64,000 nucleotides of DNA, taken from contig CACDKN010000004.1 in NCBI GenBank assembly GCA_902553315.1, positions 6,668 through 70,667 on the forward strand, written 5' to 3'. Under the pieces are notes generated by a model. That model was not told the origin of the DNA. It saw only the letters and a program-made list of their open reading frames with translations, and made no database searches. This DNA comes from an uncultured SAR86 cluster bacterium (GTDB taxonomy: Bacteria > Pseudomonadota > Gammaproteobacteria > Magnimaribacterales > AG-339-G14). Below, in pieces: positions 7,051 to 55,475 of the stretch. Made by a program: the position numbers and the translations under genes. Positions within the stretch are counted from its first letter, which is position 1. Every line of letters starts with the position of its first letter.

Positions 7051-7851
7051 ATGAAAATTGATCAATTGTTTGATGTGAAAGGAAAAGTAGCTTTGGTTAC
7101 AGGCGGTTCTAGAGGGATTGGGGAGATGATTGCGGCAGCTTTTTTAGCTAATGGAGTAAAAGTATATATCTCGGCAAGAAAGGCAGATCCTTGCGATCAA
7201 AAAGCAATGGAATTATCTGAAATGTATGGATCGGAATGTATCTCTATCCCAGCTGATGTTGGATCAATGGATGGTATTGTTAAATTAACTGAAGAAATCA
7301 AAGCTAGAGAAGATAGATTAGATTTTCTTATCAATAATGCTGGCGCTGCTTGGGGTGAGAGTATCGACGATTTTTCTGAATCGGGTTGGGACAAAGTCAT
7401 GGACTTAAATGTCAAGGGAATGTTTTTTACTACTCAAAAACTTTTGCCTCTGCTAAGAAAATCTGGAACACAAGAATTACCTGCAAAAGTTATAAATATT
7501 GGTTCAATCGACGGAATCAATACACCGGCTTTTGAAAATTACGTTTATAGTGCTTCTAAAGCAGCAGTTCACCAGCTCACCCGACATTTAGCTTCAAAAT
7601 TGGTAAAAGAAAATATTCTTGTAAACGCTATTGCTCCAGGACCATTTCCTAGCAGGATGCTCGGTTCGGCGGTGGCCCATGATTTCACTCCTTTAGAAGA
7701 GAGAAGTCCAGTTAAACGCATTGGAACCAAGGAAGATATTGGGGGACTTGCAATATACTTATGTTCCAGAGCTGGTAATTTCACAATAGGTGAAACCATT
7801 ACATGCGACGGTGGGCTTACAGCTTGCTCAGGTCATAATCTTTCCGTATAA
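7051..7851 (+). CDS. Short-chain dehydrogenase/reductase (SDR)
   Basis: 266 aa with TGGSRGIG Rossmann motif, NNAG, and the YSASK catalytic Tyr/Lys. Confidence 0.88.
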   Translation: MKIDQLFDVKGKVALVTGGSRGIGEMIAAAFLANGVKVYISARKADPCDQKAMELSEMYGSECISIPADVGSMDGIVKLTEEIKAREDRLDFLINNAGAAWGESIDDFSESGWDKVMDLNVKGMFFTTQKLLPLLRKSGTQELPAKVINIGSIDGINTPAFENYVYSASKAAVHQLTRHLASKLVKENILVNAIAPGPFPSRMLGSAVAHDFTPLEERSPVKRIGTKEDIGGLAIYLCSRAGNFTIGETITCDGGLTACSGHNLSV

Positions 7852-7882
7852 AAAAACCCTGCCTCCGAAGAAACAGGGTTTC
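7850..7882. terminator. Bidirectional intrinsic terminator, much stronger on the minus strand
   Basis: Minus-strand reading: CCCUGUUUC-UUCG-GAGGCAGGG, a 9-bp stem (two G-U pairs) with a cUUCGg tetraloop, followed by 7 U (complement of 7850-7856). Plus-strand reading has the same stem followed only by UUUCAAG. Confidence 0.8.
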
Positions 7883-8060
7883 AAGATAAAGTATCTCAAC
7901 TTAAATCTTTCTAGAAGCGGCCGAAGCGTCTTCCAGTCGGAATAGGGATAACCCTAGTCAGGCGGTCCTCCCTGATATTCCTGTTAAATTGTTCGTATTA
8001 ATTTTGGATCACCTCCTGTCAGGGATTGTTGGAATTAGCAAAAATAGAGACCCTGTTTTA
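7851..8060 (-). ncRNA. Candidate structured small RNA or structured 3'UTR of the DASS symporter mRNA (family unknown; boundaries approximate)
   Basis: A locally GC-rich patch in an AT-rich genome. Minus-strand hairpins are UCAGG/CCUGA (7958-7975), UAGGG-UUAU-CCCUA (7943-7956) and GAAG-AC-GC-UUCG-GC-CG-CUUC (7914-7933). GGAAUA/UAUUCC (7976-7981 with 7939-7944) closes a three-way junction. AGGAGGUGAUCC lies at 8006-8017, a possible -10 TAGAAT at 8062-8067, and the terminator at 7850-7878. Confidence 0.35.
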
Positions 8061-8119
8061 AATTCTATAATTTGCGACTTATTGATAAATTTTACTACTT
8101 TTTAAATTGCTTTCAATCT

Positions 8120-17612: not shown

Positions 17613-17689
17613 GGTGGGCGTAGCTCAGTTGGTAGAGCGCTGGTTTGTGGTACCGGTTGTCGTGGGTTCGAGTCCCATCGTCCACCCCA
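17613..17689 (+). tRNA. tRNA-His (anticodon GTG) with encoded G-1
   Basis: GGTGGGCGTAGCTCAGTTGGTAGAGC... CTGGT-TTGTGGT-ACCGG ... CCACCCCA, near-identical in layout to E. coli tRNA-His. Confidence 0.93.
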
Positions 17690-26358: not shown

Positions 26359-26395
26359 TTTATAATTTTATCACGTTAAGTATAATTACACGTTT

Positions 26396-26665
26396 ATGAA
26401 ATATAGCCATTTTCTGTTTCTTTCTTTATTCGCTCTTTTAAGCTTATCGAGTCATGGATTTGAGCAAGAGCATGAGCACGACTTTCATGAAGAAGAATCT
26501 GAGCAACATTGCATTTCTTGTCATCTTCTTGAATTTTCTATTGAAACTAATAAATTAGATGGAAATTTTATTTCTACACAAAGTATTTATTACTTTTCAA
26601 AAAAAGAAAATCTAAATAATTTTAAAACACAAAATTCAGATGTAAGAGCTCCACCAATTAGTTAA
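26396..26665 (+). CDS. Small secreted His/Glu-rich protein with HCxxCH motif (DUF2946-like by recollection)
   Basis: 89 aa. Signal peptide MKYSHFLFLSLFALLSLSS, then HGFEQEHEHDFHEEESEQHCISCH. No SD. A TATAAT at 26381-26386 would give a leaderless or near-leaderless mRNA. Lies directly upstream of a TonB-dependent receptor. Confidence 0.6.
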   Translation: MKYSHFLFLSLFALLSLSSHGFEQEHEHDFHEEESEQHCISCHLLEFSIETNKLDGNFISTQSIYYFSKKENLNNFKTQNSDVRAPPIS

Positions 26666-26708
26666 AACTTTTTTTATTTTTTTAACTTATTTAAAAACAG
26701 GAGTTTTT

Positions 26709-28772
26709 ATGAAATTTATATGTATTTTTTTTACAGCTTTATTGGCTGTATCCAATTTCTTGCTCGCACAAGAAGATACTGAAGAACTTATCGTTGCTTC
26801 AGCTTTTATTGAAGGCGATTCATCTTCAATTAATAATCCAATTCACGTGGTTGAATATGCAGAAGTTTCTAAAAGAGGAATTTCAAATCTAGGTGAGTCA
26901 ATTGATTCATTATTAGGTGTGTCTAATCAAGATTTTGGTGCTTCCGTAGGAAAACCGATTATTCGAGGAATGGCTGGAAATCGAGTTAAGGTTTTAAACA
27001 ATGGCTTGGTTGTAAGAGACGTTGCTTACATGGGTGCAGATCACCCAATCGAAATAGATCTTAATGCAATTGAACAAATTGAGATTGTAAAAGGGCCATC
27101 TTCAATTCTTTATTCAAATGGAGCAATTGGCGGAATTGTCAACGTTGTGGATAAAACGATTGCAAAAGAAGATATTTTAGAAACGTCTATTAATGTTGGA
27201 TTTGAATCTCAATCAGTTAATGACGGCGATAGCTACAATATTAATCTTTCAAGTAATGTTTCAGGATTCAATATTTTCCTGTCACATTTAGACAAAAATC
27301 TTGATAACTTTGATATTCCTGATGAAGCAGTTATTCACGAGCCAGGACATACTGAAGAAGAGAAATCTTTTTTGCCTAATTCTGATTCAAAATTAGCAGC
27401 TAGTCGCGCAGGTTTATCCAAAACAGGAGACTGGGGTTACTATGGGATTTCTTTTGTTAATTCTGATCAACTCAATGGTGTTCCATTTCATGGTGAAGAG
27501 CACGAACCAAAACAAGGATGTCCTGAACACGAAGAAGAACGAATCTTTGCTAGTACTAATTCAAGTGTTATAAATGTTGAGGGAAAACGTCTTCTTGATG
27601 GCCCTATCAACGACATTGTTTATATTTTTAGAGAAACCGATTCTCTTTTAACAGAACAACATCTCGAAGAAGAAGGGCATGAAGAGGACCCAGTTCCCGC
27701 AGGTTGTGAAGAAGAAGAAGAGGGACCTACCACTTTTACTAATAATGCTGAGGAGGTTCAATTAATATTTGATATCTCAAATGATTCTTTAGAGCAAAAG
27801 GTTGTATTCAATTATGCTGACCAAGAATCTTCAGTTATTGGTTCAGAGGCTTTCATGGAGCCTACTGATAGCACCGAGACAACCATTGGTTACTATTTAG
27901 GTACTTCTTTAAATGAAATTGATGTTGATTTTGGAATTCGTTTTGATGAGATCAACAGAAAAGGATCAATAAAGCCAGCAACTGGAAATGCAGTTGATCA
28001 CGATCTAGATTTCGATGGATTAAGCTATTCTGCTTCTTTTGGAACAAGTCTTACAGACAATATATCTGCTTCACTAGGACTTTCTGCTGTAGAGCGTGCA
28101 CCCTCACCAACTGAACTCTTCATGAATGGCAAACATTTAGTAATTCAGAGATACGAGATAGGTAGCGTTGCATTAAATACAGAAGAGTCACAAAACATTG
28201 ATCTTCAATTCAATTTTGATGTCAACAGTTTTGAAATTTCAGCTTTGTATTTCAAAAATGATATTGATAACTATATCTATCTTCTTGATACTGCGACTAA
28301 AAAAGAAGAGGTGTTAATTGCAAACCATTCTCAACGGGATGCAGAATTTGAAGGATACGAATTAAGTATCGGTTCTTCTTTTGATTTATATCAAGGCGAA
28401 TTAGCTGTATCTGTGGGTACAGATTCAGTTGAAGGAAAATTCACAGACGGAACATTTATTCCAAGAATAACTCCTTCTAGGTTTATATATTCATTTGAAT
28501 ATGCACAAGACGATTTACTTATTGATGTATCTTTAACCGACGTAGACTCACAATCTGACGTTGCTTCAGGAGAATCTGTTACTAATGGTTTTGAGTTACT
28601 GGATTTGTCAGTATCTAAAAGTTTTGATCTTTACGGCGAAGAAGATCTTACTTTAGGAATATTCGGAACAAATTTACTTGATGAAATAGCAAGAAATCAT
28701 AATTCGTATGTCAAAAATGAAGTTCCATTGGCAGGAAGAAATATTGGTTTGAGATTTAATTTAAGTCTTTAA
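26709..28772 (+). CDS. TonB-dependent receptor with His/Glu/Cys-rich loop insertions (metal, Zn/Cu-type)
   Basis: 687 aa. Signal peptide, plug domain (IIRGMAGNRVKVLNNG, IEIVKGPSSILYSNGAIGGIVNV), and a beta-barrel ending ...GRNIGLRFNLSL. Acidic/His insertions are HGEEHEPKQGCPEHEEER and HLEEEGHEEDPVPAGCEEEEEG. Strong SD (AGGAG). Confidence 0.85.
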   Translation: MKFICIFFTALLAVSNFLLAQEDTEELIVASAFIEGDSSSINNPIHVVEYAEVSKRGISNLGESIDSLLGVSNQDFGASVGKPIIRGMAGNRVKVLNNGLVVRDVAYMGADHPIEIDLNAIEQIEIVKGPSSILYSNGAIGGIVNVVDKTIAKEDILETSINVGFESQSVNDGDSYNINLSSNVSGFNIFLSHLDKNLDNFDIPDEAVIHEPGHTEEEKSFLPNSDSKLAASRAGLSKTGDWGYYGISFVNSDQLNGVPFHGEEHEPKQGCPEHEEERIFASTNSSVINVEGKRLLDGPINDIVYIFRETDSLLTEQHLEEEGHEEDPVPAGCEEEEEGPTTFTNNAEEVQLIFDISNDSLEQKVVFNYADQESSVIGSEAFMEPTDSTETTIGYYLGTSLNEIDVDFGIRFDEINRKGSIKPATGNAVDHDLDFDGLSYSASFGTSLTDNISASLGLSAVERAPSPTELFMNGKHLVIQRYEIGSVALNTEESQNIDLQFNFDVNSFEISALYFKNDIDNYIYLLDTATKKEEVLIANHSQRDAEFEGYELSIGSSFDLYQGELAVSVGTDSVEGKFTDGTFIPRITPSRFIYSFEYAQDDLLIDVSLTDVDSQSDVASGESVTNGFELLDLSVSKSFDLYGEEDLTLGIFGTNLLDEIARNHNSYVKNEVPLAGRNIGLRFNLSL

Positions 28773-28835
28773 GTAGATATCGAATATCATCTTCAAAACA
28801 TATAGAATGGAGGAGTTTTTAACTCCTTCATTCAT

Positions 28836-31652
28836 ATGTCAAAGATAAATTATTTAATCTTAATTTTATTTTTCTCTTCCCTAATTTTTTCTCAAGAAAA
28901 TTTAGGTGTAGAAGAGATAATTGTAACTGGGAGTTTAATAAAATCTAATAATTTAGAAACCGCAAATCCAAGTTACTCAATTACTAAAGAGGATTTGGAT
29001 AAAAGTGGAACTTTTAGATTAGAAGACTATTTATCGAAGCTACCCCAGATAACACCAGGCAATTCCGCACTGCAGTCTGGCTTTTCTACTGGAACTGCGT
29101 CAGTTAGTTTAAGATCTTTAGGCGGAGATAGAACTTTACTATTAATTGATGGAAAACGTCTTTCTCCAGGAACTCCCTTTGATGGTCATGCGGAAGCCGA
29201 TATAAATCAAATTCCTGATGCATTAGTTAAAAGAATTGACGTTGTAACTGGTGGAAAATCAACCATTTATGGATCTGATGCAATTGGTGGAGTTATAAAC
29301 TTCATTTTGGATAGATCTTTTGAAGGGATAAAAGTTGATTTTCAAGGAGGCTTTTACAATCATAAAAATAATAATACTTATTTACGAGATATTCATTCAG
29401 CAAAACCTTATGATCTTGCTCCAAAAAACATAAGAGATGGCGATCAAGGCAATCTATCAGTGATTATAGGAAATAAAATTTTTCAAGACACCCATTTCAC
29501 GACCTACATAAATTACAGAAAAGTAGACCCAATTAGATGGTCACAGAGAGATATAAGCAATTGCGCACTGTCTGCCAATGCGGTTTGCAGAGGTTCAAGC
29601 GCTAGTAAGGAAGGCTTATTCAAAATAGGAGCTTCGACTTTTTATTTTGTCGATGACACAGATTTTATTTCAGGAAGGAAAACATACAATTTTGCTTCCT
29701 ATAATTTTCTTCAAAGGCCAGATAATAAATTGAGCACTGGCTTTTTATTGGATCATAAAATTAATAAAAATCATCAATTGAAGAGTAGTTTTTTTCACGT
29801 AACCGATAAAACTACAGCGCAAATAGATTACTCACTCCTGTTCCGTCAATCTGTATCTATTCCTTGTTCTCATCCTTTTTTGTCAGCACAACAAATAGAA
29901 AAACTTTGCTCAGATTTTGGCCTTTCATCCAATGATTCACAGACGGTTACTTTAAGCCGAAGAAATTTTGAAGGTTTGCCAAGACAACAAGAATTTAATC
30001 TTCAAAATAATCGGTTTATCCTTGAATTAGAAGGCAAAACATTTGCAAATTGGGAATATCAGTTCTTTCTTCAAAGATCTATGACTGACCTTGAGTATAT
30101 TTATTTCAACGACATATCGAAGTCTAAAACTGCAAATGCATTAAATATTGCTGGTTCAGCTTTAAATCCCAGCTGTGTTTCTAATGATTCTGGTTGTGTT
30201 CCTTGGAATATATTTATTAATAATGGAAACCAAATTGTAAATAATCCTGCTTTAGGGATTACACAAGATGCTTTGAATTATATAAATTTGAATTTATCGA
30301 TAACGGGTTCAAGCAGTGAATCTCAACAAGTTTTATTTTTTTCAAAGAAACTTAATTTAGAGAATTCTTTAATCTTTAATCCTTCGATAGTGATTGGTTT
30401 AGAAAAAAGAAAGATTTCACTGTTAAAAAATCCTGACAAGAACTTTGAAGGAAATGATGGAGCTGGTCAACAGGTTGAGCAACACCAACTTTCTGGAACG
30501 ATCAAAGTTGACGATTATTTTATTGAAGGTTTAGTGCCATTTAAAAACTCGACCAAACTATCGGCTAGCTATAGATTTTCTGATTACTCGCTTTCTCAAA
30601 AATCTGAAGCTTTCGATGTTGGTATAAATTATAAAATAAATGAATTAATTTCCTTAAAAGCTTCAATACAAAAAGCCATTAGAGTTGCAGACATTCATGA
30701 ATTATTCGAAGAAACTCATGCAAAATACGTGGCACTTAGTTCTGATCCTTGTTCTGGATCCAATCCAGAGAGATCTCTATCTGAATGTTCAAGAACTGGC
30801 GTCACATCTTCACTGTATGGTTTGATTGAAGCTCCAGCCAGTTCAATTGCTACAACTACAGGAGGAAATAAAAATTTACTTCCAGAAGAAGCAATTACCT
30901 CGAGCTTTGGGTTTGTTTTTAATGGTCTTATAAATTTTGTAGAAATTGATTTCTACAATATAGATTTGGATGATCAAATAGATACCTCAGATGCTGATAC
31001 TGTCCTAACTAAATGTTTGGAAACAGGTTCATCAAAATGGTGTTCACTCATTACTAGAAATCCTTCAACTGGAACTTTTCATGAAGGTTCTGGAAAAATT
31101 AATACGCCTCTCTTAAATTTTGTTTCAAATGAGACTTCAGGATTAGATTTTTTATATAAACGTAGTTTTGATACTTCAGTAGGACAAGTCAATGTTTCAA
31201 ACTTTTCTAATTTTTTATTTAAAAGAAGAATTCATCAAGCTTCAAGCGAATTAGCCACAGATTGCCGAGGAAAATATGAAAATATTTGCGGCCTCCCATC
31301 ACCTAAATTCCAAAACATCTTAACCATTGATATAGAAAGTGAGTGGCAAAATATGCCTCTTAGCACTTCCTTTAAATTTAGATATTTGGGCTCAGTTAAA
31401 GACGTCAATTTGGATAAATCCAACACTTCATATAATGAGAATGTTCCTTTCAAAAGTTTCACTTATTTCGACATCTCTCTAAATACTACTTTTGAAAACA
31501 TAGACTTAAGATTTGGTGTAAATAATTTATTTGATATTGATCCTCCAGTAAATGGACAAATAGGTTATGTTCCAGGAAATGGAAACATTTATCCTTCTTT
31601 TTATGATTCCTTGGGAAGATTTATTTTCTTCAGATTATCTACTGAAATGTAA
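28836..31652 (+). CDS. TonB-dependent receptor (large, 938 aa)
   Basis: Signal peptide, plug motifs (EEIIVTGS, LRSLGGDRTLLLIDGKR, VVTGGKSTIYGSDAIGGVINF), and a long beta-barrel with a C-terminal ...GRFIFFRLSTEM. Confidence 0.88.
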   Translation: MSKINYLILILFFSSLIFSQENLGVEEIIVTGSLIKSNNLETANPSYSITKEDLDKSGTFRLEDYLSKLPQITPGNSALQSGFSTGTASVSLRSLGGDRTLLLIDGKRLSPGTPFDGHAEADINQIPDALVKRIDVVTGGKSTIYGSDAIGGVINFILDRSFEGIKVDFQGGFYNHKNNNTYLRDIHSAKPYDLAPKNIRDGDQGNLSVIIGNKIFQDTHFTTYINYRKVDPIRWSQRDISNCALSANAVCRGSSASKEGLFKIGASTFYFVDDTDFISGRKTYNFASYNFLQRPDNKLSTGFLLDHKINKNHQLKSSFFHVTDKTTAQIDYSLLFRQSVSIPCSHPFLSAQQIEKLCSDFGLSSNDSQTVTLSRRNFEGLPRQQEFNLQNNRFILELEGKTFANWEYQFFLQRSMTDLEYIYFNDISKSKTANALNIAGSALNPSCVSNDSGCVPWNIFINNGNQIVNNPALGITQDALNYINLNLSITGSSSESQQVLFFSKKLNLENSLIFNPSIVIGLEKRKISLLKNPDKNFEGNDGAGQQVEQHQLSGTIKVDDYFIEGLVPFKNSTKLSASYRFSDYSLSQKSEAFDVGINYKINELISLKASIQKAIRVADIHELFEETHAKYVALSSDPCSGSNPERSLSECSRTGVTSSLYGLIEAPASSIATTTGGNKNLLPEEAITSSFGFVFNGLINFVEIDFYNIDLDDQIDTSDADTVLTKCLETGSSKWCSLITRNPSTGTFHEGSGKINTPLLNFVSNETSGLDFLYKRSFDTSVGQVNVSNFSNFLFKRRIHQASSELATDCRGKYENICGLPSPKFQNILTIDIESEWQNMPLSTSFKFRYLGSVKDVNLDKSNTSYNENVPFKSFTYFDISLNTTFENIDLRFGVNNLFDIDPPVNGQIGYVPGNGNIYPSFYDSLGRFIFFRLSTEM

Positions 31653-31655
31653 TTA

Positions 31656-32576
31656 ATGGAAAAAGTTTTTTTATTAGACATAGGTGGGACTAATGTCAGA
31701 TATGCTTTCGCAGAAAAGGGTAAGACTTCAATCGAAAAAATATTTAAAAAAAATATAGGTAGCAAAAGTCTAGATAAGTTATTGGAAGACCTTTTGACAA
31801 CAGAAAGTGGAAAAGTCTTAAACATAGTTATTTCTGCAGCTGGCCCAAAATTAGAGGGGATTATTAGAATGACTAACAGATCTTATAAAATAGATCCCAA
31901 TGAAATAAAAGAAAAATTTAGTCTGAAAGAATGTCATATACTGAACGATTGGGAATCAATCGCATATGGACATGCTTATCTTAATCAAAAAGATTTTATT
32001 AATTTAATAAATAAAGAAGTAAGTTCATATAATAAAAATTCTTTATATTTTGGCCCAGGCACAGGATTGGGCGTATCAATTTTGTTAGACAATCAAATTG
32101 TAATCTCCTCTGAATACGGCAATACAAACATAGGTGTTGAAGAATTAATTGGGGAGGATTTATCCAAGCTCCATCATTTTAAATCCATCGAGGATACTCT
32201 CTCCGGAAAAGCAATTTCAAAAATTTATGAAATTAAGACAAGAAAAAATTTAAGTGCAGAAGAAATCTTTTCGCAGGCTAAAAATGATGATCTAGTAGCA
32301 AAAGAAATCATACAAGATTTTATAGAGAGATTAGCGACAATTCTGTCTGATCTGACTTTGTCCTTTCTTCCAGGAAAGGGTATTTATTTAGCTGGAAACC
32401 TCACAAGAAGTTTGAAAGATTTTATTAACACCAAAATTTTTGAGGAGAAATTTCTTTCAAATAAAGCTGGCCCTCATTTAGAAATTTTAAAAAATACTCC
32501 TATAAACATAATTATGAAAGAGCATTCACCGTTATATGGGAATTTAAATTATTTTAATTTATCTCAGAGAGATTAA
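31656..32576 (+). CDS. glk: Glucokinase
   Basis: 306 aa. LLDIGGTNVRYAF, ILNDWESIAYG and GPGTGLGVS align with E. coli Glk (VGDVGGTNARLAL, IINDFTAVSMA, GAGTGLGVA). Confidence 0.88.
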   Translation: MEKVFLLDIGGTNVRYAFAEKGKTSIEKIFKKNIGSKSLDKLLEDLLTTESGKVLNIVISAAGPKLEGIIRMTNRSYKIDPNEIKEKFSLKECHILNDWESIAYGHAYLNQKDFINLINKEVSSYNKNSLYFGPGTGLGVSILLDNQIVISSEYGNTNIGVEELIGEDLSKLHHFKSIEDTLSGKAISKIYEIKTRKNLSAEEIFSQAKNDDLVAKEIIQDFIERLATILSDLTLSFLPGKGIYLAGNLTRSLKDFINTKIFEEKFLSNKAGPHLEILKNTPINIIMKEHSPLYGNLNYFNLSQRD

Positions 32577-46237: not shown

Positions 46238-46259
46238 ATAATATAGAACAAGTTTAAAT

Positions 46260-46505
46260 ATGGATTTTATTACTTCTATTTATTCATCGCTTACAACCAC
46301 TCTTTTTTTTGGTTATGTTATTGGAAGTCTTTTTATCGTTACTCCTCTATACCTTTACACTAGGTTTTACGAAAGGGTCACCAATAAAACGTCATATTTC
46401 AATAAAAAGGGAAATTTATTTGAAAAACTTCTTTGGATTCTGTTTGCTATTTATTTTGTAGGCTTCTTCTTGTATTCAATTTTTTACGTCTTTATTGTCA
46501 GATAA
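46260..46505 (+). CDS. Hypothetical small membrane protein (2 TM)
   Basis: 81 aa with two hydrophobic helices. No recognised family. Confidence 0.5.
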   Translation: MDFITSIYSSLTTTLFFGYVIGSLFIVTPLYLYTRFYERVTNKTSYFNKKGNLFEKLLWILFAIYFVGFFLYSIFYVFIVR

Positions 46506-46511
46506 GAGATT

Positions 46512-52272: not shown

Positions 52273-52590
52273 ATGTTAAAACTTTTCTTAGGGATATTCG
52301 GAGGCATCTTTACGATAATCTCCATTTTAATAAGTATTTTTGTTCCTGTAAGTTTTCTAAAACCTAATTCAACTTTTTTTGATTTTGTCTTAACTCTGTT
52401 TTTTGCTTATTTTACCTATCTATGTATCAGGGTGTTAAAGACTACTGATCGTACAAAACCATTTCCTGGAATGATTTTTCATTATGATTCACAAAAATAT
52501 TATTTTTCAAAACGATGGTTTGCTTCAATTGGAACTTTATTTTTTGGTTTATCTACATTATTTAAAGTTCAAAGTTTTATCGTTCTATGA
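52273..52590 (+). CDS. Hypothetical membrane protein
   Basis: 105 aa with three hydrophobic segments. Starts 4 nt after the P450 stop. Confidence 0.5.
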   Translation: MLKLFLGIFGGIFTIISILISIFVPVSFLKPNSTFFDFVLTLFFAYFTYLCIRVLKTTDRTKPFPGMIFHYDSQKYYFSKRWFASIGTLFFGLSTLFKVQSFIVL

Positions 52591-52766
52591 GTAGCTTTTT
52601 AATTTTCTTGTCATTTTGGGTAATGTGGAGTTTGATAAGCTATTTCATAATTCAAGTGTATTCAGAATCTAGAATTAATATTGCAGACAGAAATTTTTAT
52701 TATGAAATCATAGGATCGATTGGATTTGGATTGTTAGTAAATTCTATTCTTTTTGTTTTATATTAA
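52587..52766 (+). CDS. Hypothetical small 2-TM protein (59 aa; below the ORF-track cutoff)
   Basis: My translation is MSSFLIFLSFWVMWSLISYFIIQVYSESRINIADRNFYYEIIGSIGFGLLVNSILFVLY. ATGA overlap with the preceding ORF. Confidence 0.4.
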   Translation: MSSFLIFLSFWVMWSLISYFIIQVYSESRINIADRNFYYEIIGSIGFGLLVNSILFVLY

Positions 52767-52775
52767 AATCTTATT

Positions 52776-52898
52776 ATGAGATATCTAATGATTGGCCTTT
52801 TTACTTTTTTTCTTGTAGGTTCTTTATACATTTATTACTCTGCTCAACATGAGATGCTTGAAGCCGTCGGTTTAGAAATGGGTGGTCACGATCATTAA
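52776..52898 (+). CDS. Hypothetical 40-aa single-TM peptide with a C-terminal GGHDH tail
   Basis: My translation is MRYLMIGLFTFFLVGSLYIYYSAQHEMLEAVGLEMGGHDH. It ends 5 nt before the hflX start. Confidence 0.3.
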   Translation: MRYLMIGLFTFFLVGSLYIYYSAQHEMLEAVGLEMGGHDH

Positions 52899-52903
52899 AC
52901 ATT

Positions 52904-54196
52904 ATGAATGAATCAAAATCTTTGAACGAAGTAATAATAGTAAATTCTTCATTGGGTAATTTAATAAACATTAATGCAAATGAAATATTTTCAGAATTTA
53001 AAGAATTAGTTTCTTCAACTAATGCAGAGATAATTGATGAATTTAATTTTCATCAAAAAACTATTAACGCAAAGTATTTTATTGGAAAGGGAAAACTGGA
53101 AGAAATTAAAAATACTTTAATTCAGCATAATTGTTCTTTAGTTATCTTCAATCATGACTTATCTCCTTCTCAAGAACGTAACATTGAAAGTTTTCTGAAT
53201 TCAAGAGTATTGGATAGAACGGGTTTAATTTTAGATATTTTTGCACGCAGAGCTTCTAGCCATATTGGGAAAATGCAGGTTGAATTAGCTCAATTATCAC
53301 ACCTTTCAACGAGATTGGTTAGAGGCTGGAGTCATTTGGAAAGACAAAAGGGGGGTATTGGACTTAGAGGCCCAGGAGAAACACAGTTAGAAACAGACCG
53401 TCGACTTGTTTCAAATCGAATAAAAAGTATAAAAAAAAGGCTGATAAAAAGTCATCAACAGAAAAACTTGAACAGATACTCCAGGAAAAAGGGCAGAAAC
53501 CATATCGTTGGAATTGTTGGTTACACAAATGCTGGAAAAACTACACTTTTTAACCAATTAACTGGCTCTAACGAATTTGAAGCAGATAAGATGTTTGCAA
53601 CATTAGATACCGTTACAAGAAAAAATCTTACTCCTGGATCTGAGTCCATAATTTATATTGACACGGTGGGTTTTATTTCTGATTTACCAACTTATTTGAT
53701 TGAATCCTTTAAAGCTACGCTAGACGATTTAAAATCTGCAGATCTTTTGCTTCATGTAGTCGATATAAATGACAGAGCTTTTGAAAATAAGGTTTTTGAG
53801 GTGAATAAAATTCTAGTTGATATTGGTGCTGAAGATATTCCTCAAATATTTGTTAAAAATAAAGTAGATTTGGCAAAAAATATAGATTTCGAAATTAACA
53901 ATGTAGTGAATTCAGTAAATGTGTCTGCTAAGGAAGGCATTGGCATTGAATTATTAAAAGACCTAGTTTCTAATCATGCAAATAGAGGATTATTTAAAGG
54001 AAAACTTTTCATCAACTTTAAAAATCCAAACATAAGAGCCAAATGCTACAAAACAGCCAAAATTATCAAAGAAATTTCTACAAATACTGGTTGGGAGATT
54101 GAATTAATTATAGGTAATTATGATCTCAAGAAACTATTAAATAGCGATGATATAAAAATCATTAATTCTGAAGAATATTTACAAGAAAAATTATAA
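52904..54196 (+). CDS. hflX: GTPase HflX
   Basis: 430 aa. HflX N-domain (LDRTGLILDIFARRA, LAQLSHL, GGIGLRGPGETQLETDRR) and G domain (GYTNAGKTTLFN, DTVGF, NKVD). Confidence 0.94.
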   Translation: MNESKSLNEVIIVNSSLGNLININANEIFSEFKELVSSTNAEIIDEFNFHQKTINAKYFIGKGKLEEIKNTLIQHNCSLVIFNHDLSPSQERNIESFLNSRVLDRTGLILDIFARRASSHIGKMQVELAQLSHLSTRLVRGWSHLERQKGGIGLRGPGETQLETDRRLVSNRIKSIKKRLIKSHQQKNLNRYSRKKGRNHIVGIVGYTNAGKTTLFNQLTGSNEFEADKMFATLDTVTRKNLTPGSESIIYIDTVGFISDLPTYLIESFKATLDDLKSADLLLHVVDINDRAFENKVFEVNKILVDIGAEDIPQIFVKNKVDLAKNIDFEINNVVNSVNVSAKEGIGIELLKDLVSNHANRGLFKGKLFINFKNPNIRAKCYKTAKIIKEISTNTGWEIELIIGNYDLKKLLNSDDIKIINSEEYLQEKL

Positions 54197-55099: not shown

Positions 55100-55103
55100 A
55101 TTC

Positions 55104-55298
55104 ATGCTTATCGAATTATTTGTTACAGCTTCTATTTCTCTCTTGTTGGCATTAATTTCTTTTTTGGTTCATGGAAGAATGACTTCTTATAATTTAGCTA
55201 TAAGAACATTATCATTTTTAGTAGTTGTCTCTACTTTGTGGTGGACCTTTGGACTAAGTATTGTTTTTGAAGGGAATTCTGTAATGTTGAAATTCTAG
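55104..55298 (+). CDS. Hypothetical small 2-TM protein
   Basis: 64 aa with two hydrophobic helices. Tightly follows the PhyH gene. Confidence 0.45.
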   Translation: MLIELFVTASISLLLALISFLVHGRMTSYNLAIRTLSFLVVVSTLWWTFGLSIVFEGNSVMLKF

Positions 55299-55299
55299 A

Positions 55300-55470
55300 A
55301 TGTATTTTATTAATTGGATTATTTTATCGGTTATTTACTATTTTGTTTTGAGACTTTATTTAAGTTCTAAGTATTACAAAGGGAGTAGAAGTAATATTCA
55401 AGAAGTTCTTTTAGCGATTGTATTTGGTTCAATTACTTCTACATTTATTATTTATGGATTCAATGTTTGA
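55300..55470 (+). CDS. Hypothetical small 2-TM protein (56 aa; below the ORF-track cutoff)
   Basis: My translation is MYFINWIILSVIYYFVLRLYLSSKYYKGSRSNIQEVLLAIVFGSITSTFIIYGFNV. The loop/helix-2 pattern (SRxNI ... GSI) resembles the 59-aa ORF at 52587. Confidence 0.35.
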   Translation: MYFINWIILSVIYYFVLRLYLSSKYYKGSRSNIQEVLLAIVFGSITSTFIIYGFNV

Positions 55471-55475
55471 TAAAT

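Follow-up and report, generated by a model that had tools for sequence, protein, structure and literature searches.

Genomic locus and conservation of the RNA

The 64,000-nt stretch of DNA analysed here (the window) belongs to a SAR86-cluster gammaproteobacterium, and its best match is the single-amplified genome AG-339-G14, with 99% identity of the DASS protein. Within the window, the genes of an SDR oxidoreductase and of a DASS-family anion:Na+ symporter converge, and their ends at 7851 and 8120 leave the gap of 268 nt that was described in an earlier note on this DNA; spacers in the window have a median length of 44 nt, and 10 of them, among which is this gap, reach at least 200 nt. Comparison with related sequences indicates that the minus strand of this spacer is a new, conserved and structured small RNA (sRNA) gene of SAR86 that lies outside all Rfam families. 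Positions 7850-8080 are probably transcribed independently, from a promoter and to an intrinsic terminator of their own (Table 1). The GC-rich core (7910-8020) reported in the note is borne out by a GC content of 0.477, compared with 0.335 in the window and 0.171 in the promoter part of the spacer, although the contrast with the coding DNA of the SDR gene (0.395) is only moderate.

Genome homologs were gathered by a search with the DASS protein, which yielded 35 SAR86 loci (protein identity 61-99%). In all 35, an alignable counterpart of the minus-strand spacer lies downstream of the DASS gene, with 71-97% nucleotide identity over the aligned part. A scan of metagenomes that used invariant words only (AGGAGGTG...CAGGAATNTCAGGG; a 21-base pattern) returned 43 contigs, 38 of which carry true homologs. 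The other five (L037, L040, L045, L049 and L070) are unrelated, mostly GC-rich contigs; these chance matches, the number of which fits a rough expectation for the size of the collection, were excluded from all analyses. In every homolog with enough flanking sequence, from the 35 SAR86 loci and the 38 metagenome contigs alike, the order DASS gene, RNA, SDR gene is retained, with the same convergent orientation. The search of relatives that the note had proposed therefore finds the element conserved in 35 SAR86 genomes and 38 metagenome contigs, and 52 distinct full-length sequences from about six clades make up the homolog set.

The RNA core is 72-100% identical among homologs, compared with 31-45% at four-fold degenerate sites of the DASS gene, which are saturated even between close clades. 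Approximately 60 RNA positions are invariant, which, together with this saturation, indicates strong selection on non-coding sequence. A covariance model of the 3' domain matches a single site in the window (96 bits; the next match has an E-value of about 1) and one site per locus elsewhere. A repeat or mobile element was considered and rejected, as no second copy is present in the window, in 44 further sequence sources or in viral contigs, and the RNA itself was not found in viral contigs. As far as the searches reach, the RNA is specific to the SAR86 cluster.

Probable transcription unit

A consensus scan reports only one promoter-like site in the region, a sigma-70-type promoter with 10/12 matches, the -35 hexamer of which begins 4 nt past the DASS stop codon. 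In 42 of 47 distinct upstream regions, a TAAAAT/TAATAT -10 hexamer sits 9-10 nt upstream of a conserved GUCGC, and a second, -35-like hexamer (TTGNNN/TTATTA) is located 16-17 nt upstream of the -10. The 9-10 nt between the -10 and the start of the RNA are not conserved in sequence, and their distance is fixed. The conserved block has a sharp 5' edge at GU(C/U)G (8078), and the U-tract is its other end. The hexamer TAGAAT (8062-8067), which had been suggested as a possible -10, lies inside the transcribed P1 stem and gives way to the conserved promoter with its -35 at 8116-8111 and its -10 at 8094-8089. In clade D (L024, L027 and relatives), the -35 is TTATTA instead of TTGNNN, and the -10 TAAAAT is kept and preceded by (A/G)TAG; the strength or type of the promoter may differ between SAR86 clades.

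The terminator forms a 13-bp stem in the minimum free energy (MFE) fold. The stem and U7 of the note are thus present, and in relatives the stem and a U7-8 tail are retained while the sequence of the stem changes. A simple terminator scan missed this terminator and reported P3a on the plus strand instead. A promoter, a terminator and conservation bounded by both, the general marks of an sRNA gene, are all seen in the sequence, and the independent transcript proposed in the note gains support from them. No terminator was found between the DASS stop codon and the RNA, which suggests that the DASS mRNA probably carries the element too; co-transcription of the DASS gene and the sRNA is likely, and the RNA can thus also form the 3' untranslated region (3'UTR) of the DASS mRNA. 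In several clades, the terminator stem is accompanied by U-rich runs on both strands, and the sRNA terminator may end both convergent transcripts there.

Table 1. Features of the sRNA locus (window coordinates)
Feature	Position	Strand	Description
SDR oxidoreductase gene	7051-7851	+	Pfam adh_short; convergent; stop codon overlaps the tail of the sRNA terminator
DASS-family anion:Na+ symporter gene	8120-9559	-	Pfam Na_sulph_symp, TIGR00785; upstream of the sRNA
Predicted sigma-70-type promoter	8116-8089	-	-35 TTGAAA (8116-8111), 16-nt spacer, -10 TAAAAT (8094-8089)
Probable sRNA transcript	8080-7850	-	about 228-231 nt; 5' end inferred near 8080; 3' end in the U-tract 7856-7850
P1, 5' hairpin	8075-8038	-	about 10-11 base pairs from RNA nucleotide 4; loop of 13-16 nt with invariant CAGGG (8055-8051)
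A-rich linker	between P1 and CCCUG	-	
Invariant CCCUG	8024-8020	-	13-15 nt past P1, 2-3 nt ahead of the SD; candidate 3' strand of a pseudoknot
Extended Shine-Dalgarno (SD) element AGGAGGUGAUCC	8017-8006	-	universal part AGGAGGUGRUC (8017-8007)
A/U-rich track	8005-7984	-	predicted to be mostly unpaired
Invariant AUU	8002-8000	-	8-9 nt past AGGAGG in every homolog
14-codon frame	8002-7958	-	from AUU to an invariant UGA (7960-7958) inside the P3a 3' strand
Three-way junction	7981-7939	-	P3 7981-7977/7943-7939; P3a 7975-7971/7962-7958; P3b 7956-7952/7947-7943
Internal anti-SD-like strand GAGGACCGCCUG	7970-7959	-	loop and 3' strand of P3a; predicted alternative partner of the SD when P3a is not formed
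H4 hairpin	7936-7926/7921-7911	-	conserved C.C mismatch between C-G and G-C; UUCG-type loop in most clades
H5 hairpin	7909-7883	-	conserved loop AGYUGARAURC; 4/10 pairs compensatory, including U-A to C-G beside the loop
Intrinsic terminator	7879-7850	-	GC-rich stem (7879-7857) and U7 (7856-7850); overlaps the SDR stop codon (7849-7851)

Secondary structure of the RNA

The z-scores of single-sequence folds are modest (-2.8 for the minus strand and -2.1 for the plus strand), and the case for the RNA, in view also of the weakness of its 12-nt SD element in a single sequence (see below), rests on comparison with relatives. The 3' domain (7983-7883) was aligned with MAFFT without structural information, only the named pairs of P3, P3a, P3b, H4 and H5 were counted, and the count was repeated on a model-guided alignment. 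Standard pairs are formed in 93.3% of the cells, versus 38-54% (maximum 54.4%) in controls with the 3' partner shifted by 1-3 columns. Compensatory double changes occur at 12 pairs, seven of the ten in H4, four of the ten in H5 and one in P3b. The covariation score is 0.341, compared with 0.148 in shuffled alignments, none of which reaches the observed value (0/500), and at most 0.131 in the slid registers. The covariation check that the earlier note had called for has therefore turned out in favor of the structure. Together with the frozen sequence, these results indicate that the RNA is structured and under purifying selection at the nucleotide level.

P1 and P3b are placed out of register across clades by MAFFT; P1 was therefore folded clade by clade, and P3b was read directly. 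At the same position, the clades form P1 from different stems, namely GCAAA..AUAGA/UCUAU..UUUGC, GCUAAUUUAGA/UCUAAAUUUAGC, GUAUUUGUGAA/UUCAUAAAUAC, GCAGCUAG/CUAG..CUGC and GCAC..UAGG/CCUA..GUGC. Likewise, P3b reads UAGGG/CCCUA, AAGGG/CCCUU, ACGGG/CCCGU or CGGG/CCCG, depending on the clade, and P3a shows changes from G-C to G.U at two pairs. Comparison thus backs five helices (P1, P3a, P3b, H4 and H5). P3 (GGAAU/AUUCC), which closes the three-way junction drawn in the note, is invariant; it fits the structure and is neither supported nor contradicted by covariation. All of the hairpins in that drawing are present on the minus strand, and P3a, P3b and H4 have comparative support. Of its two cUUCGg loops, the H4 loop is conserved, in most clades only, and the second loop is not. 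H5, P1 and the conserved promoter had not been described there.

With 96 bits for the minus strand and 8 bits for the plus strand, the scores of the covariance model, together with the G.U pairs in P3a, identify the minus strand as the RNA strand, as had been proposed; a plus-strand RNA is rejected on the same scores. In all clades, H4 keeps a symmetric CCG/CCG motif with the C.C mismatch, which we take to resemble the S6:S18-binding motif of rpsF leaders and of 16S helix 22.

In the 5' part, the pentamers CAGGG (in the P1 loop) and CCCUG are invariant in all homologs and could pair to form a candidate H-type pseudoknot, the loops of which would measure 8, 2 and 13-15 nt. An extension of this helix by flanking bases was tried and rejected, as the flanks pair inconsistently. 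Because both pentamers are invariant and their flanks do not lengthen the helix, the pseudoknot is kept as a candidate. The pairing of CCCUG with the CAGGG of P3a, which the earlier note had favored, is possible; pairing with the equally invariant CAGGG of the P1 loop is possible to the same degree.

The extended SD element complements the 16S rRNA tail

As noted earlier, the minus strand carries AGGAGGUGAUCC at 8017-8006, and positions 8004-8017 of the plus strand are identical to positions 1527-1540 of Escherichia coli rrsA; the sequence of the window on the RNA strand, AGGAGGUGAUCCAA, is the exact complement of these positions. In all clades, at least 11 consecutive pairs can be formed with 16S positions 1530-1540, which make up the whole single-stranded tail 3' of helix 45. 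The complementarity extends to 14-15 nt in clades A, C and D and reaches 1527-1541 in some clades. AGGAGGUGRUC is invariant in the 52 distinct homologs, and its sole change, from A to G, still pairs with U1532 of 16S rRNA; at this A/G position, the internal strand that can mask the SD is mostly non-complementary.

Within the window, this element is the longest complement of the anti-SD, and all matches of nine or more nucleotides in the 64 kb come from this site. By comparison, open reading frames (ORFs) of at least 120 amino acids that start with ATG show 3-7 nt of anti-SD complementarity, and one of them shows none. The 12-mer by itself is weak evidence, as at least one match with at most one mismatch occurs in 17 of 100 shuffled sequences; it becomes significant because AGGAGGUGRUC is invariant in the 52 homologs.

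An rRNA fragment or a 16S mimic was rejected as an explanation, as the other words shared with 16S rRNA are 8-9 nt long (shuffle mean 8.7). The G.U pairs, which indicate that the RNA strand carries the complement of the 16S tail and not a copy of it, also argue against a mimic. The 14-nt complement of the tail is the only part of the RNA that complements or mimics 16S rRNA beyond chance.

Predicted mutually exclusive folds of the SD element

The strand that can mask the SD, formed by the loop and the 3' strand of P3a, varies by clade (GAGGACCGCCUG, GGUUACCAUCUG, GGGUGCCUCUUG and GGAAGCCUCUUG), yet it retains 9-11 of 12 possible pairs with the SD 12-mer. The mean is 10.3 of 12 pairs, versus at most 6.25 in slid registers, and in 45 of the 52 RNAs no other part of the molecule offers more pairs with the SD. 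The P3a loop also contains a near-invariant CC, which contributes nothing to the hairpin but can pair with the SD's GG. In most clades, the MFE fold computed without constraints leaves the junction unformed and has the SD paired with the loop and 3' strand of P3a. The SD-open and SD-masked folds of 15 representatives differ by -4.4 to +4.9 kcal/mol, in a total of about -60 kcal/mol. A formed junction with a free SD, and a masked SD with the junction opened, are therefore predicted to be mutually exclusive and, in every clade, nearly isoenergetic states. Switch-like alternative pairings, as suggested in the note, are thus predicted, and the better-supported candidate switch is the one between the SD and the loop and 3' strand of P3a.

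In the expression platforms of translational riboswitches, in RNA thermometers (ROSE and fourU) and in the metastable folds of the type I toxin mRNAs hok and aapA1, the SD is either free or paired with an internal anti-SD-like strand, and an imperfect, G.U-containing helix, mutually exclusive folds and one common strand are shared with the masking predicted here. These elements, however, precede a real gene, whereas the SAR86 RNA precedes a 14-codon AUU frame and has a predicted promoter and terminator of its own.

In 12 representatives, the segment from the SD to P3 has a mean unpaired probability of 0.48-0.82, whereas that of the 3' domain is 0.32-0.40. The prediction is thus a largely open segment of about 40 nt between the structured domains, which is close to the length that a 30S subunit covers. 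The 14-codon frame, the AUU of which lies in this segment, is open without insertions or deletions, and its UGA is invariant, in all 52 homologs. Extension of this frame by UGA read-through or selenocysteine was rejected: the frame continues in the window, and indels in P3b break it in other clades. The GTG inside the SD was also rejected as a start, as it is in frame in some clades only and meets an early stop in the window.

Comparison with known RNA families

At the gathering threshold, Rfam matches in the window are confined to seven tRNAs. In the 501-nt region around the element, the best match to Rfam 15 at E≤10 reaches 19 bits, compared with the 54 needed, and all matches are driven by the terminator; at E≤1, nothing consistent is found at the RNA in seven divergent homologous loci. 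The families covered include 6S, SRP, tmRNA, RNase P, Csr/Rsm, IMES-1 to IMES-4, riboswitches, ribozymes and thermometers, and an ARAGORN scan for tmRNA gave no match. The failure of the earlier note to match the RNA to SRP, 6S, tmRNA or a riboswitch thus agrees with the Rfam check it had recommended. A lack of conservation and a lack of compensatory changes, which it had listed as findings that would refute its proposal, and an Rfam match, which would have reclassified the RNA, were each looked for, and none was found.

Searches of the literature on SAR86 sRNAs, CsrA, Hfq and IMES found only one statement, in Dupont et al. (2012; PMC3358033), according to which an abundant SAR86 non-coding RNA (ncRNA), seen in the metatranscriptomes of Shi et al. 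(2009), sits in a region of glycolysis, glucose-uptake and pentose-phosphate genes. The RNA described here is probably not the same, as its gene neighborhood differs: the genes within 8 kb encode an acyl-CoA carboxylase, PhoD, OYE, SDR, DASS, GpsA, FolE and Maf, and the sole sugar gene in the window, that of a glucokinase, is 23 kb away. ncRNAs are not discussed in the paper on the first SAR86 isolate.

A possible ribosome-docking function

The RNA is tentatively read as a regulated ribosome-docking RNA, a serious possibility that falls somewhat short of being probable. The middle of the RNA would amount to a complete translation-initiation region, with an 11-nt SD, an A/U-rich open track of about 40 nt and an AUU at the spacing of a start codon, clamped between the 5' hairpin, possibly with its pseudoknot, and the structured 3' domain. 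With the three-way junction formed, the SD would be exposed; withdrawal of the loop and 3' strand of P3a from the junction would let them mask the SD in the manner of an internal anti-SD. Binding of 30S subunits would be the output of the RNA and would be gated by a signal, which might be co-transcriptional kinetics, temperature, a ligand or a protein, the last two acting on the 5' pseudoknot or the 3' domain. Some translation of the 14-codon AUU frame, low in level and possibly sensitive to IF3, may take place and would unfold the junction, with the peptide not being the selected product. Docking could serve to titrate or protect 30S subunits, or it could place the fate of the RNA or of the DASS 3' end under translation-dependent control.

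One particular form of docking, itself unlikely, is that the unmasked SD pairs with the whole free 16S tail and parks 30S subunits on a pad without a start codon, with the internal anti-SD strand and the 5' pseudoknot setting when this decoy is active. Were this the case, initiation would be throttled globally, the 16S 3' ends of idle subunits would be shielded in a slow-growing oligotroph, or both. The likeness to 6S RNA, a conserved housekeeping sRNA of the abundant type that mimics the nucleic-acid substrate of a core machine (open promoter DNA, in the case of RNA polymerase), is a functional analogy only; the machine would in our case be the 30S subunit, and the substrate an initiation region of an mRNA. 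The SAR86 RNA lacks the rod fold, the central bubble and the pairing of the 5' and 3' ends of 6S RNA: its 5' end is P1, its 3' end is the terminator, its consensus fold consists of several hairpins, and the Rfam model of 6S RNA gives no match.

Several points weigh against ribosome docking. As the note had already observed for the window, no ATG, GTG or TTG start follows the SD, and this holds for every homolog, in which only the 14-codon AUU frame is available. With an SD helix of 12 bp, the AUU would follow after just 3-4 nt, a spacing that may not suffice for initiation of the usual kind. The 16S reference is E. coli rrsA, a proxy for a near-universal tail, and not the 3' end of SAR86's own 16S rRNA. 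Part of the complementarity between the SD and P3a is automatic, as both of the competing 5' strands hold CAGG. The SD, P3, CAGGG and CCCUG are invariant, which leaves the masking helix and the pseudoknot beyond proof by covariation. The conserved H4 and H5 have no role in the model. A binding site for a protein, or a seed that pairs with another RNA, would account for the invariant G-rich 11-mer equally well, and use of the promoter and binding of 30S subunits are both deduced from sequence alone.

Alternative explanations

An unlikely alternative is a base-pairing sRNA of the type-I, 3'UTR-embedded class, which would target mRNAs, or sponge a C/U-rich sRNA, through seeds in the SD-like 11-mer, the A/U-rich track and the H5 loop. 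The SAR86 RNA resembles DapZ and MicL of this class in that its apparent promoter sits at the end of the upstream ORF or just past it and its terminator also serves the mRNA of that ORF, so that the element would be part of a long mRNA as well as of a short sRNA, and its 5' hairpin, long conserved unpaired segments and terminal U-tract are also in keeping with base pairing. DapZ and MicL, however, are Hfq-dependent, with short seeds and little structure, whereas the SAR86 RNA is about 230 nt long and highly structured and presents an SD instead of an anti-SD-like seed. No convincing complement was found at the 53 translation-initiation regions of the window, which represents about 4% of a genome. 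The best target match is rich in G.U pairs and lies 45-58 nt upstream of an unrelated gene, and the neighboring genes were rejected as targets, as no site was found in them. Additionally, the usual hfq-hflX linkage is absent from the window, a G-rich SD-like seed would pair with CU-rich sequence and not with ribosome-binding sites, and the extent of the 11-mer equals that of the free 16S tail exactly.

It is also quite unlikely that the RNA is a tiny mRNA or a dual-function sRNA with a functional 14-residue peptide (for example, I/M-N-I-N-D-L-A-G-I-S-G-G-A-S). The strong SD 8-9 nt from an invariant AUU, the indel-free frame with its invariant UGA in the 52 homologs and the confinement of the stop triplets of the A/T-rich stretch to the other two frames would be expected of such a gene. 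A conserved AUU at the distance of a start codon from an SD is known from infC, in which the AUU start makes initiation sensitive to the level of IF3. infC, however, encodes a full protein, whereas the SAR86 frame has 14 codons, and a dependence on IF3 is pure conjecture here. The sequence of the frame does not evolve as coding sequence would: its variable columns fall on codon positions 1, 2 and 3 in the numbers 5, 4 and 6, without an excess at the third, and its shared four-fold degenerate third bases are 100% identical (3/3 to 7/7), compared with 31-45% in the DASS gene. Frozen four-fold sites next to a saturated DASS gene indicate selection on nucleotides. Half of the frame lies within P3 and P3a, the residue at codon 12 is free to vary (R/G/V/E/D), and the peptide is hydrophilic and carries no recognisable motif. 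Given these features and the absence of a canonical start codon, the encoded peptide is unlikely to be the selected product.

That the RNA is a protein decoy, either of the CsrB/RsmZ type or for another protein that binds CAGG(A/G), is improbable. Such a decoy would sequester a translational repressor through four conserved CAGG(G/A) motifs, of which one is in the loop of P1, one in the SD and one each in the 5' strands of P3 and P3a, so that a single motif is displayed by a hairpin loop. RNA decoys of the Csr type imitate SDs, and CsrB, CsrC and RsmX/Y/Z, which titrate a component of translational control, are, like the SAR86 RNA, stand-alone, terminator-ended sRNAs that display SD-like G-rich motifs. 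They differ in presenting many GGA motifs in loops for CsrA, typically at least five, whereas only two GGAs are universal in the SAR86 RNA, one of them in the SD and the other in a strand of the P3 stem, neither being in a hairpin loop; the mean is 3.2 per RNA, and the RNA has one long match to the 16S tail. The only match to the Csr/Rsm families of Rfam is a sub-threshold one to the terminator in one locus. No GacA/UvrY palindrome (TGTAAG-N6-CTTACA) was found at 8120-8300 with up to three mismatches, and tblastn with E. coli CsrA detected no csrA in 714 kb of sequence from partial genomes. The invariance of 11 nt also exceeds what CsrA needs.

A mere structured 3'UTR of the DASS mRNA, which would protect it from exonucleases and terminate both convergent genes without acting in trans, is very improbable: the lack of a terminator after the DASS stop codon, the strict linkage of the DASS gene and the RNA in all homologs and a terminator that overlaps the SDR stop and looks partly bidirectional in some clades would suit it, but the conserved promoter between the DASS stop and the element, five covarying helices, the invariant SD and some 60 invariant positions exceed the needs of a stabiliser or terminator. 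The remaining expectation is kept for functions other than those considered here.

Significance of the RNA

The genome of SAR86 is streamlined, few regulators are known from it, and a strain has been cultured only recently (PMC11582366). The comparative support for the RNA is on par with that for many accepted Rfam families. Its architecture is unusual in that a complete, maskable initiation region with maximal complementarity to the 16S tail is attached to no gene. If the RNA docks ribosomes, it would represent a new way to regulate or buffer translation capacity; even as an sRNA of the ordinary sort, acting by base pairing or by binding a protein, it would still constitute a new family and offer a useful marker of SAR86 and a defined target for the mapping of metatranscriptomes.

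Other features of the window

Other spacers of 250-380 nt in this compact window are located at 26359-26708, 55100-55475, 46238-46511, 58766-59017 and 1467-1728, and none of these five gives an Rfam match at the gathering threshold. Two TonB-dependent receptor genes followed by the glucokinase gene occupy 26709-32576; this segment, in which no known RNA family was detected, is possibly connected with the sugar-uptake region of Dupont et al. (2012). In the region 52273-54196, hflX (52904-54196) is not preceded by hfq, unlike in most Gammaproteobacteria, and tblastn with E. coli Hfq gives no match in the window; three small, very hydrophobic ORFs (105, 59 and 40 amino acids) and a P450 gene lie upstream of hflX. 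Additionally, four tRNA genes (Pro-UGG, Arg-ACG, Arg-UCU and His-GUG) at 17261-17689 lie directly upstream of tig and clpP, and the tRNA-Arg(ACG) of this cluster scores merely 38 bits in Rfam.

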